From assembly GCA_024233345.1 (NCBI GenBank), contig JACKPT010000006.1, forward strand, positions 84,959 through 148,958: a stretch of DNA of 64,000 bases, given 5' to 3'. The DNA comes from Verrucomicrobiota bacterium (GTDB lineage: Bacteria > Verrucomicrobiota > Kiritimatiellia > CAIVKH01). Each line of letters begins with the position of its first letter. Within the stretch, counting starts at the first letter, position 1. The position numbers were made by a program, and so were the translations under genes. Under the pieces are notes generated by a model that ran no database searches, was not told the origin of the DNA, and saw only the letters and a program-made list of their open reading frames with translations. Below are positions 47,066 through 55,168 of this stretch, piece by piece.

Positions 47066-47177
47066 TCGGGCAATGAGTCATCGATGTCGCGCGTAGCGCC
47101 CATCTCCGAATGGGCGTTGGCTGTTTCGGCGAGCGGGGCAAGTCGCCGATATGGAAATCGGCGCTACACTCCGGGGG
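47066..47177 (+). repeat. left copy of the 112-bp direct repeat bracketing the lower-GC island
   Basis: 109/112 identical to 55057-55168. It contains two hairpins: AGCGCCCAT-CTCCGA-ATGGGCGTT and CGCCGAT-ATGGAA-ATCGGCG. Confidence 0.9.
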
Positions 47178-47205: not shown

Positions 47206-47679
47206 TTAATCACGCGAACAATTTGGAGCCATGGTCTCCTTCCGCCAGGAACAGAGCTGGAGAGCTGCCAACAATAATGGCAGAACAAATATCACGGCCA
47301 GATGAATGTGGGTCACCAGGCGGTCGGCATTCGCGCCGCCGAACTGTGCCGCTAACACCAAGCCAGTGTTGATGCCAGCCATAATTGATCCAGAGATGAT
47401 GCCGGTCACGATGCTATGCTTCCCGCGAACTTTTATGATAATGCATCCGGCAATAAACAATACGCTGTTCTGAATTCCCATCCAAAGGCCATGAGCAAAT
47501 ACATTGCGCCAGAAGATCACCATCTTACTCGTCGAAGGGTAGCTCGTGTCGTCCCATAACCTGGCCCAATTTCCACTAAGAGCAAGAGTCACGAGCGCAA
47601 GAAGGCATGCTGTCACCACAGCGGAGAGGACTGCCCTCACGTACGGATTGGTTAGTCGTTTCTTTTGCATATCATGCAT
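47206..47679 (-). CDS. hypothetical 4-TM membrane protein (island)
   Basis: Hydrophobic segments AVLSAVVTACLLALVTLAL, GIQNSVLFIAGCIII, IISGSIMAGINTGLVLAA and LAVIFVLPLLLAAL. The start is uncertain (47679, 47670 or 47736). Confidence 0.5.
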   Translation of the reverse strand: MHDMQKKRLTNPYVRAVLSAVVTACLLALVTLALSGNWARLWDDTSYPSTSKMVIFWRNVFAHGLWMGIQNSVLFIAGCIIIKVRGKHSIVTGIISGSIMAGINTGLVLAAQFGGANADRLVTHIHLAVIFVLPLLLAALQLCSWRKETMAPNCSRD

Positions 47680-47692
47680 TGAACGCTGCCGT

Positions 47693-48007
47693 TCACCAGT
47701 CGTTGGCAGATGCGTCCGTATGGCTGTCAACGGCATGGTGGGAGGGCTTGTTCGGACTGTCTTCTCGATTGTGTTTTGACCTGGACCACAGAAACAGGAA
47801 TGGAACTGTGATGATCAGCATCCAGAAGGAGACGTGGGCGGCAAAGCGCAGCCGCTCGGGAACGGTGTCGAATGCGAGGGAAAGCGAAACAGGAGAGACC
47901 GCGGGGAGAGTTGCCGCACAGCATCCGAGGGCGTAGAGCAACAGGAACGCGACAGCGTAGATCACGACTGCTGCGATGCCGAATCGTTTCCATTCTGCTC
48001 TCATCAT
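47693..48007 (-). CDS. hypothetical small membrane protein (island)
   Basis: 104 aa with 2-3 TM segments (FGIAAVVIYAVAFLLLYALGCC, VSFWMLIITVPFLFLW). It is preceded by a CTGACGTTCGGA box 7 nt upstream of the ATG. Confidence 0.5.
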   Translation of the reverse strand: MMRAEWKRFGIAAVVIYAVAFLLLYALGCCAATLPAVSPVSLSLAFDTVPERLRFAAHVSFWMLIITVPFLFLWSRSKHNREDSPNKPSHHAVDSHTDASANDW

Positions 48008-48103
48008 CTCATCGTCCGAACGTCAGTGATTACCGGGTTCCGAGCCCGCAGCGGGTGAGGAATTCGATGGATCGCGTTAGCACATCCGATTATAGATACT
48101 GTT

Positions 48104-49759: not shown

Positions 49760-49783
49760 ATCTCTTAATCCGAACGACTCGAA

Positions 49784-50668
49784 TCACGGTTTTTCAGAAG
49801 AGGCGCCGCTAAGCGCGGCTTCTGAAAATACCTGTGAATTCGTTAGTTGAGCCTCTTCTGTTTCGACCCAAAGTCCTTTCTGTTTGAGAAGCGCTTCGGC
49901 TTCCTTGTGACGTACAGGTGTCTCCAGAGCCAGTATCACCTTCCTGTCGGGCAAGTACCTTGTGACCTTGCTGAGACGAAATTCACCGGATGCACTGTTC
50001 GGGCCGGATGGCACCATTATGCTCCAGGATCTCATTCCTGCCATTTTGACGAACACAAAACAGACAGGATCCCAATCGTGCTCCGCATGTGTTCGCCCTT
50101 CGGCGATCCATTCTTCTGTCGTACGAATCAGCTCATCCCCAACTCCGTAAGCACGACACTCCATCGCGCGTGGTGAACGAGAGACGTGCAACGCATCTGC
50201 CCTCGGTTCCCAATGCAAACCAGCCATGTTCGGGCCAACGAGTGAGCACCATAGTGAGTGATGTCCGCCAAGCCAGCCGGTGAATGGTGCACTCTCAAAT
50301 CCCTCTGCCCCGCGTCGCTTCATCTCCTCCTCGTGAAGTCGGAAATCGGCGATGAGACGGTCCATGTGAACGTCGAGTTGGGGGATGGAGTTCACTTTGA
50401 TGATCTGCGTTGGTGTTGAATCAACTGTGATGGCCTCGGGCAGAGCCCCGTCACTTGCTTCACGAATGGCAGCATTTACCATGGCAACGACGTTGGTCAT
50501 CGGTTCCATTTCAAACTGGAGATCCGGTCGCACGTACGAATCCCACTTGTAGGGGAGTTGATGTGCTATCGGGTGCAACCAGCGGTATACCACAGGGGTG
50601 AGCAGTAGGCCACCGAGCAGAAGCACCGAAACCAACGCAGCAATCAGGCATCCTCGTTTTATCTTCAT
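49784..50668 (-). CDS. hypothetical N-terminally anchored protein (island)
   Basis: MKIKRGCLIAALVSVLLLGGLLLTPVV is an anchor or signal, followed by a soluble domain with no recognised family. The ORF-track N-terminal extension (to 50995) runs into the intron and was rejected. Confidence 0.55.
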   Translation of the reverse strand: MKIKRGCLIAALVSVLLLGGLLLTPVVYRWLHPIAHQLPYKWDSYVRPDLQFEMEPMTNVVAMVNAAIREASDGALPEAITVDSTPTQIIKVNSIPQLDVHMDRLIADFRLHEEEMKRRGAEGFESAPFTGWLGGHHSLWCSLVGPNMAGLHWEPRADALHVSRSPRAMECRAYGVGDELIRTTEEWIAEGRTHAEHDWDPVCFVFVKMAGMRSWSIMVPSGPNSASGEFRLSKVTRYLPDRKVILALETPVRHKEAEALLKQKGLWVETEEAQLTNSQVFSEAALSGASSEKP

Positions 50669-50735
50669 GGGCACAACACCTAGCTGAGGGGCGATGTGCC
50701 GCGCAGCGGTACATCGTCCCTCTCCAGGTCTTTGT

Positions 50736-52610
50736 GTGCGCCCAGCATGGGCGCGTTGTAAATGGGGTGCAAGTCCCCTGTAGAAAGGACCAGCACATGT
50801 ATATGTGTAACAACTACCACGCGAATCCAACGCCGGAAGGGTAACCGACCGGTGGGAGGAAGGATAGCGGAAACCGGTGGGCCGATGGACAAGAATCGCA
50901 TAGCAAGGCCGTTCGTGGCGCGATGAGTTGGCACAACACAACGAAGTCGCGGGTCCAACCACGGAGGTAAATGCGGCGGTCGTGCCGGGAAGCAACGCGC
51001 TCTTACCTGGGGAGATCCCTTCCGGGTATAACCGGGAGGAAGTCAGCAGAGGCCATAGTACCGAGCAGCGAGCCGGGGGATGAAAGAAGCCCGCTTAAAC
51101 TACGTAACCGGAAGACTCGATGTCGGGAAGGGCTGAACCGACAAGGAAGGTTCCGACCACGGATTGGACGTGAGGCCCGAACACGCCGGGATGGCGAGGG
51201 AACCACGAGAGCCGAACCGATGGGAAGCATGGGAGCCTTCGAGAATAGAACCATGATCGAACAGATACTCGACAGTGAGAACATGCAACGGGCCTGGCAA
51301 CGCGTCAGGTCCAACGCTGGGGCACCGGGTATCGACAGGATGACCGTCGATGCCTTCCCGGCGTTCTGCCGATCTCACTGGCCCCGGATTCGTTCGATGC
51401 TGATCGAGGGAACCTACCGCCCGGCGCCGGTGCGCCGGGTGTTCATTCCCAAGCCTGACGGGTCGCAACGCCCGTTGGGGGTGCCGACGGTGTTGGATCG
51501 CGTCATCCAGCAAGCAACAGCACAGGTCCTGACCCCGCTCTTCGAGAGCGGTTTCAGTGAGCACAGCTACGGCTTCCGCGAAGGCCGCAACGCCCATCAG
51601 GCGGTGCAGTCGGTGGAAGCCGGTTGGAAGGAAGGTCGCCGCCACGCAGTGGATTGTGACCTGAAAGCCTTCTTCGACACCGTGGACCATCAACGGCTGA
51701 TGGGGCAACTGCGGGAGAAGATCAGGGACCGCAAGGTCCTGAAGCTGATCCACCGGTACCTCGTGGCCGGAGTGGTATTGCCGGACGGAACCCGAGAGGC
51801 AACCCCTCAAGGCGTCCCTCAGGGTGGGCCACTCTCGCCCCTGTTGGCGAACATCGTGCTTGATCCACTCGACAAGGAACTCGAACGCCGAGGGCATCAT
51901 TTTGCCCGCTATGCGGATGATTTTCTTGTATTAGTGAAAAGCCCGAAGGCTGCCGAACGGGTGATGAGCAGTCTTACACGATTCGTTGAGGGTCGCCTCA
52001 AGCTGACAGTCAACCGGGCCAAAAGCAAAGCCGCGCCGCTCAAACAATGTGCCTTTCTGGGATTCCAGATCGGGCGCGGAGGTAAAGTGGTGTGGTCAAC
52101 CAAGGCCCTCGCACGCTTCAAGAGCCGGGTGAAAGAAATCACCCGGCGAAACCGGGGCCACCGGGTGCAGGACGTCATTGACGAATTGCGCCGGTATGTC
52201 ACGGGCTGGATCAACTACTTCCATATCAGCCACACCTACACGGCGGTGGAGGAACTGGCAGAATGGATTCGGCGAAGAGTGCGGCTGTACTTCTGGAAGC
52301 AATGGAAGCAACCACGGACCCGCCGCCGCCATCTGCTCGCTCTGGGCATCCCGCCCGGAGAGGTGCATATGGCTACACGGAGCCGGAAAGGATACTGGCG
52401 GATGAGTTCCAACAGCATCCTCCAACGGGCACTGACCAACCAACGGCTGCATGAGCAAGGCGTCCCAGATCTGCGCACGCTATGGATCAAACTCCACTAT
52501 GGGCCAAACGCCCGAGTCTAGTCGGAACCGCCCGGTGCGGACCCGCATGCCGGGTGGTGTGGGACTCGTGACTGGCTGAGGTTCCCCTCAGTCAGTCACG
52601 GGGACCCGAT
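50736..52610 (+). mobile_element. complete bacterial group II intron (about 1.87 kb; boundaries +/- a few nt)
   Basis: The 5' end is GTGCGCCCAGC... at 50736, and the RT/maturase ORF sits in domain IV. A DV-like hairpin at 52527-52558 has a 9-bp lower helix CCGCCCGG.../...CCGGGUGG, a 2-nt bulge, a 4-bp upper helix and a 4-nt loop. A long DVI-like stem at 52561-52607 has an unpaired A at 52604, 6 nt before the proposed ...GAT 3' end. Confidence 0.8.
51220..52521 (+). CDS. group II intron reverse transcriptase/maturase (no endonuclease domain evident)
   Basis: ...MQRAWQRVRSNAGAPGIDRMTVDAF..., RRVFIPKPDGSQRPLGVPTVLDRVIQQA, GFREGRNAHQAV, PQGGPLSPLLANI, and YADDFLVLV (the YADD box). The maturase X region is ...RYVTGWINYF.... 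The start is ATG 51220 or 51253. Confidence 0.92.
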   Translation: MGSMGAFENRTMIEQILDSENMQRAWQRVRSNAGAPGIDRMTVDAFPAFCRSHWPRIRSMLIEGTYRPAPVRRVFIPKPDGSQRPLGVPTVLDRVIQQATAQVLTPLFESGFSEHSYGFREGRNAHQAVQSVEAGWKEGRRHAVDCDLKAFFDTVDHQRLMGQLREKIRDRKVLKLIHRYLVAGVVLPDGTREATPQGVPQGGPLSPLLANIVLDPLDKELERRGHHFARYADDFLVLVKSPKAAERVMSSLTRFVEGRLKLTVNRAKSKAAPLKQCAFLGFQIGRGGKVVWSTKALARFKSRVKEITRRNRGHRVQDVIDELRRYVTGWINYFHISHTYTAVEELAEWIRRRVRLYFWKQWKQPRTRRRHLLALGIPPGEVHMATRSRKGYWRMSSNSILQRALTNQRLHEQGVPDLRTLWIKLHYGPNARV

Positions 52611-53121
52611 TGGCATTATCATTCTCTTGTCTGTACTCGTTCACCGCTTGAGCGAATCGCTTCTCGAAGTTCTCCAGTTCTGAACAGTTTGATTTCGAGT
52701 GTAATATGAATAGTGCCCGGTCGCCATTCTTCTTGCGGATGATTGTCCAGTCGAATTGTCTGAGTCGCCATGCTCCAGCGATCAGCGCCCAGACTCCTGG
52801 CACGGCAAGAAATGGAGCAAGTAGCGGAATCTGCTTGTTGAACTCTGAGAAGTAAACACATGCAGAACCGGCGAGGAATATCATGGCTTTTCGCAGAAGG
52901 GTACGGCTCCCGTGTCCGAATTCCGTTTGGTGATCGAGTTGCGGCGACAGGTCTGCGAGAGGATAACGCTGACTGCCTCTGCTCGTGTTCGCAGGTGTTG
53001 TCCACTCTCTTGTTAGAGCTTCAGTCGTCAACGTGAAAGTGTAGTGCCATGGCCACGAGGCTGAGTGAACGGTGCAAAGCGTTGTCTCTGTCTTCTTCAT
53101 TTCGTATTCTGCCAACGTCAC
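52588..53121 (-). CDS. hypothetical membrane protein whose 3' end is replaced by intron sequence (island)
   Basis: 177 aa with two central TM segments (AMIFLAGSACVYF, LLAPFLAVPGVWALIAGAW). The last 6 codons and the stop (RVPVTD*) lie inside the intron 3' end. The GTG 53121 start overlaps the upstream stop (GTGA); ATG 53100 is an alternative. Confidence 0.55.
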   Translation of the reverse strand: MTLAEYEMKKTETTLCTVHSASWPWHYTFTLTTEALTREWTTPANTSRGSQRYPLADLSPQLDHQTEFGHGSRTLLRKAMIFLAGSACVYFSEFNKQIPLLAPFLAVPGVWALIAGAWRLRQFDWTIIRKKNGDRALFILHSKSNCSELENFEKRFAQAVNEYRQENDNANRVPVTD

Positions 53122-53984
53122 GCCTCAGCAGACCCGGAGGGCGCGTCCGCGCGCCCTTCGGGGTATGCTGGAGGCGATGGTTCGGTGTTCTCCTGTTCTT
53201 GATTCGATTGAAGCTTCCGCCTCTTGATCAGGAACAGGATGGCTCCAAGGGGAAATGAGACCGTGAGAATCCATGGCGCATAGAGCCCCATCTTTGCCAT
53301 TCCCGCTCCGGGAATCTGCAATGCGATGGGCTGGAAGCCCATCTGTCCTGTTGTCCAGTTCAGGTTGAGCTTTGCGATCCCGACAAGAATGAAGATGATC
53401 CACAACCACTTCTTCCGGATCTTGGTGCGGACGCAAAGAACAAACGTCCAGATAATGAAGATGGGGACAGCGACGGCAAGGGCAAGTAGCACATAGTGCT
53501 GGATGCCTTTACCCGACAGGGTGAAGGCATTCAGCTCTCCAAGAGATTTCGGGATTGGGTTCACGTTCAAACCGAACACCTTTTTGTTCCCGTCTACGGT
53601 GTCGATCGTGATTGCGGCAAGAACCCAGGCATTGGTGAACTGGTATTGGTAGGTAAGGTGTGAGCGTTTCTTGTCCGGTGTTGTGAAGACATTACAGCCG
53701 ACGAGTTCCAAGGACAATGGGTCGCCGTGGTCGAGCATGGCGGCAACCTGGGTCAGATTGGACTCGATCCCGGGCTTGACGAACTGAGGATCAAGCTGCT
53801 CCGTCACAATCTTGAAATCCCCTGCAAGCAGGGCAGAAAGGCATTGTTTCGCAAGGGCCTCGTCATCATCTGGGGCCATTCGGTTCATCATGTTGCTCAA
53901 GTAATCATTGGGATTGCATCCGCATAGCGCTGTCATGAGAATGGCCACGATGACGAGCCTGAATTTCATCTGGATTCCTTTCAT
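53118..53984 (-). CDS. hypothetical lipoprotein-like membrane protein (island)
   Basis: MKFRLVIVAILMTALCGC is a lipobox. A soluble domain follows, then 3-4 C-terminal TM segments. It is preceded by AACGTTCGGT close upstream of ATG 53984; ATG 53969 is an alternative start. Confidence 0.55.
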   Translation of the reverse strand: MKGIQMKFRLVIVAILMTALCGCNPNDYLSNMMNRMAPDDDEALAKQCLSALLAGDFKIVTEQLDPQFVKPGIESNLTQVAAMLDHGDPLSLELVGCNVFTTPDKKRSHLTYQYQFTNAWVLAAITIDTVDGNKKVFGLNVNPIPKSLGELNAFTLSGKGIQHYVLLALAVAVPIFIIWTFVLCVRTKIRKKWLWIIFILVGIAKLNLNWTTGQMGFQPIALQIPGAGMAKMGLYAPWILTVSFPLGAILFLIKRRKLQSNQEQENTEPSPPAYPEGRADAPSGSAEA

Positions 53985-54048
53985 CTCTCACCGAACGTTG
54001 AATTCAGCGGCGCGGTATTCCGCGTACGCTGGAATTTGGTGTTCGGAT

Positions 54049-54495
54049 TTAGAATACTGCATGACTCACATACAGGATTATCCGGTTGTCTTCCTTGGTC
54101 AATACGGCCCTGAAGTAGTCATTGTCTGGTTGGTGGCACTGCCTGTCGATTAGGATCGACTCCTTCGGGGGAGGCCACCAATCCACCTTTTCCCCGGGAC
54201 CTCCTGAAATGTTGATGTCTTCGTTCTGAATGGCCTCGATTTGCTTAAGCACGCTATCACTGGCTGCCTCTGGGATTTCCACCCTTGCGACGAATGAGGG
54301 GTCAATCGGAGGGCTGTATCGGAAGTTGAGACCGCGAGTTCCTTGCGGCAGCTTCAGACCACTGTCGTCATTAATCATTTGCATTGCCTCAGGGTCAAAG
54401 GTATCTGGGCCTAGCTCAAACTCCCGGAACCAGCGAGAGTCGCTGCATCCAGCAAGAAGTACGGCGGCAAGGACGCAAAGTATTGCATTTTTCAT
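54049..54495 (-). CDS. hypothetical lipoprotein (island)
   Basis: MKNAILCVLAAVLLAGCSD is a lipobox; 148 aa. It is preceded by CTGACGTTCGGA 7 nt upstream of the ATG. Confidence 0.55.
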   Translation of the reverse strand: MKNAILCVLAAVLLAGCSDSRWFREFELGPDTFDPEAMQMINDDSGLKLPQGTRGLNFRYSPPIDPSFVARVEIPEAASDSVLKQIEAIQNEDINISGGPGEKVDWWPPPKESILIDRQCHQPDNDYFRAVLTKEDNRIILYVSHAVF

Positions 54496-54857
54496 TTTAT
54501 TATCCGAACGTCAGCATTGATGATCATGGACTTGTCCATGTGTCATCGGATGCGCTGTTCTGCCCTTTTGGTCCTGTGATTTCAAACTATCCAAAACCTC
54601 TTGCCACCTCTTCGTCATGCCGGCCTCAGGACCTTTAAAGCGCATCCCGCCTTCGTCGGCAGCAACCCCGTTCTGCTGCGAAGGTGGGAGCAAGATCGCA
54701 GTCGGAAGCGCGGACAGCCTTGTGGGCTGTCAAATCCCGCAAAGCGGGACTTGCCGCCCCCGGCGGCTTACGCTTCCGGGGCGATTCTAGTCCTTGTCCT
54801 GAGGCTGGCAAGACGTTTCCGATCCCAAAAAATCATAACCACCCTAGCAGAACAGGT

Positions 54858-55056: not shown

Positions 55057-55168
55057 TCGGGCAATGAGTCATCGATGTCGCGCGTAGCGCCGATCTCCGA
55101 ATGGGCGTTGGCTGTTTCGGCGAGCGGGGTAAGTCCCCGATATGGAAATCGGCGCTACACTCCGGGGG
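55057..55168 (+). repeat. right copy of the 112-bp direct repeat bracketing the island
   Basis: It differs from 47066-47177 at three positions (C/G, C/T, G/C). Confidence 0.9.

Follow-up and report, generated by a model that had tools for sequence, protein, structure and literature searches.

A group IIC intron splits an attC site in a chromosomal cassette array of an uncultured Verrucomicrobiota bacterium

A stretch of 64,000 nucleotides from the genome of a Verrucomicrobiota bacterium (GTDB lineage Bacteria; Verrucomicrobiota; Kiritimatiellia; CAIVKH01; assembly GCA_024233345.1, contig JACKPT010000006.1, positions 84,959 to 148,958 of the forward strand), hereafter called the window, carries a complete group II intron on the plus strand, among genes that are read from the minus strand. 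In a preliminary description, the intron was taken to have entered the 3' end of a gene, as such, in an operon or island of ordinary genes. It was found here that the target is rather the R'' core of an attC site, entered on the bottom strand, and that the island is rather a minus-strand cassette array, with attC sites of one orientation lying between the open reading frames (ORFs). It is very likely that the element is an attC-homing group IIC intron in an integron-type cassette array. Introns of this kind, the IIC-attC introns, are known to occupy the attC bottom strand at R'' TTGT/T (the slash marks the insertion point), opposite to cassette transcription, and the lineage was named in an earlier study (PMC3001079); introns with the same orientation to the cassettes have also been found in CALINs, which are clusters of attC sites lacking an integron integrase (PMC7923331). 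The junction TTGT/T of the window intron is the published consensus of the intron-binding sites IBS1 and IBS3 of IIC-attC introns (PMC7923331). Because it is the antisense strand of the cassettes that forms the attC bottom strand, such an intron necessarily lies antisense to them, and its orientation is the rule for group IIC-attC introns, not an accident. The features are listed in Table 1.

On the plus strand, the exons meet as ...CTTTGT/TGGCA, and the intron thus cuts the R'' core GT/TGGCA. When folded as single-stranded DNA, the split site displays an R-box, a spacer, an L-box and a central stem and can be aligned with 24 other sites of the genome; its cores, TGCCAAC and GTTGTGC, fit the consensus RYYYAAC and GTTRRRY loosely. 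A motif search in this genome (25 contigs, 3.1 Mb) yielded the family, which consists of dispersed sites of 70-80 nt that are bounded by xxxAAC and GTTxxx. Folded in single-stranded form, each has an outer R-box stem made by AAC and GTT, a spacer that does not pair, an L-box stem whose 3' arm carries an extrahelical base, and a variable central stem; many compensatory changes are seen in the stems. A covariance model, R1, was built from 25 sites of this genome. In the window, 5 to 7 sites are detected with it, every one on the plus strand and with minus-strand ORFs on either side. Across the whole genome, 61 hits reach E<=1 and about 50 reach E<0.01; they form same-strand clusters of 2 to 8, and coding lies on the strand opposite the hits in each of four arrays examined. 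A genuine attC served as a positive control: that of aadA1 in a class 1 integron is likewise detected by R1, in the bottom-strand orientation (L013 865-934). A sequence-only hidden Markov model (nhmmer) recovered just two of the window attCs, and the covariance model was required for the others.

Table 1. Positions of the intron, the attC sites and the adjoining ORFs in the window
Feature	Position	Strand	Remarks
Group IIC-type intron, complete	50736..52610	+	1,875 nt, GTGCG...CCCGAT; ends from the second copy; Rfam matches inside
Intron-encoded protein (IEP)	51253..52521	+	422 aa; reverse transcriptase (RT) and maturase (X) domains, YADD present
Domain V	52527..52558	+	32 nt with a 2-nt bulge (RNAfold); CGC triad with G.U wobble, read by eye
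Domain VI	52560..52608	+	Long 17-bp stem (RNAfold)
Split attC, larger part (bottom strand)	50671..50735	+	R1 hit 50666-50746, 56.5 bits, E 7e-12; R' core GCACAAC (50671-77), spacer, central palindrome (50686-50722), first two bases (GT) of R''
Split attC, rest of R'' core	52611..52617	+	TGGCA of GT/TGGCA, separated from the attC by the intron
Host cassette ORF, present state	52588..53100	-	Small protein, two hydrophobic stretches; 3' end (6 codons and stop) supplied by the intron
Native end of host ORF, displaced	50680..50735	-	KDLERDDVPLRGTSPLS, then stop; encoded by the attC
Next cassette ORF downstream	49784..50668	-	ATG 2 nt past the R' core
attC, first of array (weak match)	54499..54569	+ (bottom strand)	R1 17.7 bits, E 0.05
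attC	53986..54053	+ (bottom strand)	R1 21.3 bits, E 0.006
attC between 288-aa ORF and host ORF	53106..53192	+ (bottom strand)	R1 48.6 bits, E 7e-10; not in seed
attC	48011..48088	+ (bottom strand)	R1 36.4 bits, E 9e-7
Two weak attC hits	49765-49858, 47674-47762	+	R1

The presence of a group II intron at 50736-52610, antisense to the host genes, was borne out by Rfam matches, by the domains of the IEP and by a second copy in the genome. The likeness of the window copy to this second copy begins exactly at GTGCG (50736) and ends exactly at ...CCCGAT (52610); both boundaries are thereby fixed to the nucleotide and are those predicted earlier. The 5' GTGCG and 3' GAT agree with the definition of group II ends (5' GUGYG, 3' AY). 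The Rfam model RF02001 (group-II-D1D4-3) matches with 99 bits at 50835-51001 (+) and is adjoined by a weak match of RF01998 at 51004-51080; domains D1-D3 are compact, and class 1 integron introns show the same Rfam layout. As the model of domains V and VI, RF00029, gave no match, these domains were assigned by manual folding and comparison with the integron intron of locus L013. The last 89 nt of the intron fold canonically into domains V and VI (RNAfold), the architecture of domain V equals that of L013, with compensatory changes between the two, and a candidate branch-point A is bulged at 52604, 7 nt from the intron 3' end. A candidate for the exon-binding site EBS1, ACAA(G), lies in an unpaired stretch of the RF02001 consensus and can pair with UUGU; EBS3 was not located in the intron.

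The IEP, encoded in domain IV, matches the Pfam families RVT_1 (8.6e-41) and GIIM (2.8e-17) and scores 398 bits against TIGR04416, the NCBIfam equivalog of group II RT/maturases (cutoff 300). Among structures of the Protein Data Bank (PDB), the GsI-IIC RT (391 bits) and 7UIM (324 bits) are matched far better than LtrA of group IIA (146 bits) or a group IIB RT (143 bits). The enzyme is hence a bona fide intron maturase and does not belong to a non-intron retroelement, an origin that the preliminary description had named as fatal to its proposal. No endonuclease (En/HNH) domain was found in the Pfam domain search. From the best matches to IIC RTs and the lack of En, the intron is assigned to group IIC (bacterial class C). 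The stem-loop expected at the targets of this group is present as well: a long hairpin lies 13-15 nt 5' of the insertion sites of both copies, with a common GCCGCGCAGCGG in the loop region, and (C)TTGT/T at the junction is the sole exon sequence near it that they share, in keeping with the IBS1 of 3-4 bp and the lack of an IBS2 in this group.

In a maximum-likelihood tree of IEPs, built without a curated reference set, the window protein forms a four-member clade (support 100/99) with sequences from metagenome-assembled genomes (MAGs) of Verrucomicrobiia, in which the closest relatives of the intron occur. This clade lies within a larger one of 23 members, to which the classic attC introns belong too and which is split, with support of 100/99, from the terminator-type clade. 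The intron is functionally a member of the IIC-attC type; by the tree, it is a possible member of the named monophyletic lineage.

A search for further copies was rewarded. The second full-length copy, at C6:30659-32533 (-), is 97% identical over positions 1-1875 and lies in a different attC (R1 61.7 bits). The IEPs of both copies are intact, with 422 aa each, 98.6% identity and YADD kept. A third, divergent intron (IEP 56% identical) was found at C1:284414-286423 after an attC, at ...CATGT/T, and a 48-nt fragment of an intron 5' end at C1:278598 after another attC, at ...GTGT/. In a genome of the same family, a 77%-identical intron occupies ...GCTTGT/TAGAG of an attC-like site. Among 80 loci from a scan of other genomes, which leaves out that of the window, the junctions of those nearest in the tree mostly read TTGT/ or TTG/ and are preceded by attC-like palindromes, one of these sites being identical to an aadA-type attC; the more distant loci (44-47% identity) follow a hairpin and T-run, i.e. 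terminators. No consistent bias of the copies for one replication strand was seen: the GC skew is negative over most of C6, and one copy is on the plus strand, the other on the minus strand. The two 97%-identical copies in different attCs, with their intact IEPs, suggest that the intron is probably still mobile. This also makes it rather unlikely that the window copy is a relic that has lost its activity and has no effect today, a notion in keeping with the missing RF00029 match and the lack of a detected outward promoter, and one that has the intact domains V and VI against it.

Several observations weigh against attC homing. The RF00029 model does not match the intron even at E<=1, and the EBS1-IBS1 pairing shows no covariation across about 50 relatives, the ACAA(G) being kept even in terminator-type relatives. 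The four-member clade, which comes from the PVC group (Planctomycetota, Verrucomicrobiota, Chlamydiota), lies outside the classic clade of gammaproteobacterial attC introns, and the order of the subclades lacks resolution. Moreover, the 23-member clade also includes a terminator-type lineage and Synoicihabitans introns with a TGGA/ junction. There is circularity in R1, the seed of which comes from the same genome and includes both intron targets, and two of the attC hits in the window are weak (E about 0.3). Lastly, the integrase is not adjacent to the window array, and no attC lies within 6 kb of its gene.

IIC introns commonly home after terminators, as the distant relatives do, and no integrase adjoins the array; the palindromes might then be terminator hairpins or repeats of the repetitive extragenic palindromic (REP) type, and the intron an ordinary terminator-homing IIC intron. 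This is very improbable, since there is no T-run at the site, the AAC/GTT cores pair as an R box, the sites form arrays of one orientation between small ORFs, R1 matches a genuine aadA1 attC, and no gene precedes the hairpin when the site is read in the direction of the intron. The genome also encodes an integron integrase, at C16:108-1367 (L110), which scores 443 bits against TIGR02249 (cutoff 265). As this gene does not adjoin the array, the array of the window is a CALIN. The integrase gene is located at a contig end, and the stretch free of attC within 6 kb is on its upstream side; the integrase may be without an adjacent array (In0-like), with all cassettes in CALINs, or an array may lie beyond the contig end.

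With the attC reading of the target, the ORF that is interrupted can be described as a cassette ORF. Its likely start is the ATG at 53100 (MKKTE...), 9 nt past the R' core of the upstream attC; the GTG at 53121, from which it had been counted before, is disfavoured because it lies inside that attC (53106-53192). The cassette spans 53115 to 50677 (-) and measures 564 bp without the intron. It had been stated that the ORF at 52588-53121 ends in ...NDNANRVPVTD, and this holds, the last six codons and the stop being the antisense of domain VI. Likewise, when 50735 is joined to 52611, the product reads ...NDNAN-KDLERDDVPLRGTSPLS and stops with TAG at 50680-82, 11 nt before the ATG at 50668. The restored protein has no match to a Pfam family. 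Six homologues of 170-184 aa and 53-65% identity were found, and a seventh match is a 112-aa fragment. None of the six natively ends in RVPVTD, which would have spoken against an altered end. The dipeptide AN (GCC AAC, the R'' core) is kept in five of the six and is followed by a variable tail of 11-20 residues. On the contig of the closest homologue (L097), the attC model matches the bottom strand across the 3' end of the ORF; the intact cassette ORF stops immediately ahead of R' (GTTCGGG), with the next ATG no more than about 20 nt further on. Comparison with these homologues indicates that, in this family of cassettes, the longer ORF of the pre-insertion state is what occurs naturally. Forty related genomes lack the host gene and hence offered no orthologous empty site; homologous cassettes come from metagenomes only.

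The host ORF loses its tail because it reads through its own attC, as do most of the six homologues. The proposed C-terminal change thus stands in so far as a native tail of 17 residues is swapped for six intron-encoded ones; the functional loss to the protein is probably small, as the tail is encoded by the attC and weakly conserved. For annotation, it follows that RVPVTD is not native protein sequence and that the two parts of the split attC are one site. That the target was the gene itself, one of an operon like any other, entered by chance and antisense at the 3' end of its coding sequence, agrees with the insertion inside an open frame, with the longer ORF restored by excision on paper and with the comparable tails of the homologues, but is hardly credible, since the other two full-length introns, the 5' fragment and the relatives in other taxa share the structured site and TTGT/T, not the host gene, and the overlap with coding sequence stems solely from the cassette ORF reading through the attC.

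Two further observations concern the ends of interrupted ORFs. The antisense of domain VI at 52576-52586 reads GTGACTGACTGA; in whichever of the three frames an ORF enters from upstream, it meets a stop here within 4-6 codons of the junction and therefore ends quickly. Such stops are also present in the relatives L016 and L101, but not in class 1 integron introns. The second copy likewise cuts an ORF that reads through R'', in this case one of 410 aa, which now ends in ...ESGPRD and a stop (L108 2446-3678).

Homing into such a site can be pictured as follows. The intron RNA would recognise the folded bottom strand of the attC as a DNA stem-loop, together with a very short pairing (IBS1 TTGT, IBS3 T), would reverse splice into the R'' core and would then be copied into DNA. 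Once in place, the intron is not removable by splicing from the cassette transcripts, as was stated in the preliminary description for an antisense copy in the host mRNA. The R'' core is left 1.9 kb from L''-L'-R', so that the bottom strand should no longer fold into a substrate for the integrase; the split attC would then fuse the host cassette to the next one. To reach the downstream cassettes, transcription would have to cross 1.9 kb of antisense intron. In Serratia marcescens, the intron S.ma.I2 reportedly impedes transcription from the integron promoter and drives the next cassette from an outward promoter (PMC3001079). No sigma-70-like outward promoter resembling this published Pout was detected on either strand of 50500-52800, with the limit that the sigma-70 consensus may not suit a PVC host. 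By comparison with shuffles of the region on both strands, which give 1.7 expected, six terminator-like hairpins were counted, all on the minus strand inside the intron. Because of these six hairpins and the lack of a sigma-70-like promoter, polarity on the ORF at 49784-50668 is plausible. Downstream polarity and the splitting of the recombination site appear likelier effects of the insertion than the change to the protein.

The nearest relatives of the IEP on plasmids have 50% identity over the full length and lie within class 1 integrons, antisense between dfrA14 and arr-2 and between blaGES-24 and qacEdelta1. The introns of the window and the plasmids have the junction CTTTGT/GTACGCCCAGCATGGGC...ACCCGAT/T in common. 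The IIC-attC introns of class 1 integrons, i.e. S.ma.I2 (Serratia marcescens), L013 (Enterobacter hormaechei, IncC plasmid) and L014 (Klebsiella, IncN plasmid), resemble the window intron in the use of the attC bottom strand at R'' TTGT/T, in the position antisense to the cassettes, in the nearly identical ends (GTRCGCCCAGCATGGGC ... ACCCGAT), and in the RT and X domains without En, the shared order of Rfam matches and the size of about 1.9 kb. They differ from it in that the window IEP has only about 50% identity and belongs to the separate PVC clade, that its intron has a shorter D2-D3, a much longer domain VI and no RF00029 match, and that it resides in a CALIN on the chromosome of an uncultured PVC bacterium, with cassettes of unknown function and not resistance genes. 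In addition, no sigma-70-like outward promoter of the S.ma.I2 type was found with it.

The terminator-homing IIC introns (GsI-IIC, the E. rectale intron of PDB 7UIM, L058-L070) have an IEP of the same class without an endonuclease domain and also recognise a DNA stem-loop with very short IBS1 and IBS3. Unlike the window intron, they are found after a hairpin and T-run, in sense to the upstream gene, and their IEPs form a separate clade (100/99). The group IIB introns in the CALINs of halophiles are comparable in that a group II intron is present in an array without a neighbouring integrase, but they possess an AGC triad, an IBS2 and IEPs of class CL1 or E, whereas the window intron is of group IIC (PMC7923331).

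Homing into attC sites is already known for IIC-attC introns, and it is the occurrence in a new bacterial lineage, represented by a MAG of the PVC group, that is added here. These introns, best known from the resistance integrons of the clinic, appear active in the chromosomal arrays of uncultured PVC bacteria. It is a doubtful further step to propose that attC homing is not confined to the gammaproteobacterial lineage of the resistance integrons and that a distinct PVC clade, apparently mobile in a genome with scattered mini-arrays, does the same.

Within the array, some side observations concern the attC cores and the packing of the cassettes. A 'CGTTCGG(A/T) box' seen before the starts (53110-53116, 53990-53997, 54503-54510 and 48015-48022) is the R' core of the attC, and this core (GTTCGGA on the cassette strand) closes each cassette just before the next ORF. 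The next start codon follows 2-12 nt past the R' core, which is unusually tight for cassettes. The 288-aa ORF at 53118-53984 (-) reads through its attC, its tail overlapping 53106-53192. The tight gene spacing of the island, the ORFs that run into palindromes and the box before the starts are all explained when the island is read as a cassette array.

Elsewhere, possible traces of further insertions were noticed. At C3:231003-231084 (-), an attC is followed by ...TTTGT/GTGCGGATTCG, which may be a remnant of the 5' end of another intron, with no RT nearby, and the attCs at C10:56884-56942 (-) and C17:36585-36630 (-) are truncated at ...CTT/CGC..., the R'' end seemingly having been replaced by something else. 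In a Thiolinea MAG (L032), attC-type IIC introns are arranged head-to-tail at 2393, 4321 and 6249, with a spacing of exactly 1,928 nt, and such tandems also occur in L069 and L077; the 3' end ...CTACCCGAT is joined directly to the GTACGCCC of the next copy.

A dispersed repeat of 90-112 bp was also found, with about 30 copies in the genome (for instance at C2:132692, C5:54067, C10:53741/59088 and C1:90817/93137); it was absent from 20 related genomes and showed no significant fold. The window array is bracketed by it at 47066-47177 and 55057-55168, as a 97% direct repeat, and most other small attC clusters are flanked by it, often in pairs and always on the strand of the attC bottom strand. 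It is possible that the mini-arrays are carried by a mobile or recombining unit, marked by this repeat. A part in creating or dispersing cassette arrays was once proposed for IIC-attC introns. If attC targeting has been acquired independently by the PVC clade, or if intron and repeat help in creating or dispersing arrays, this genome would be a natural test system for the genesis of cassettes.

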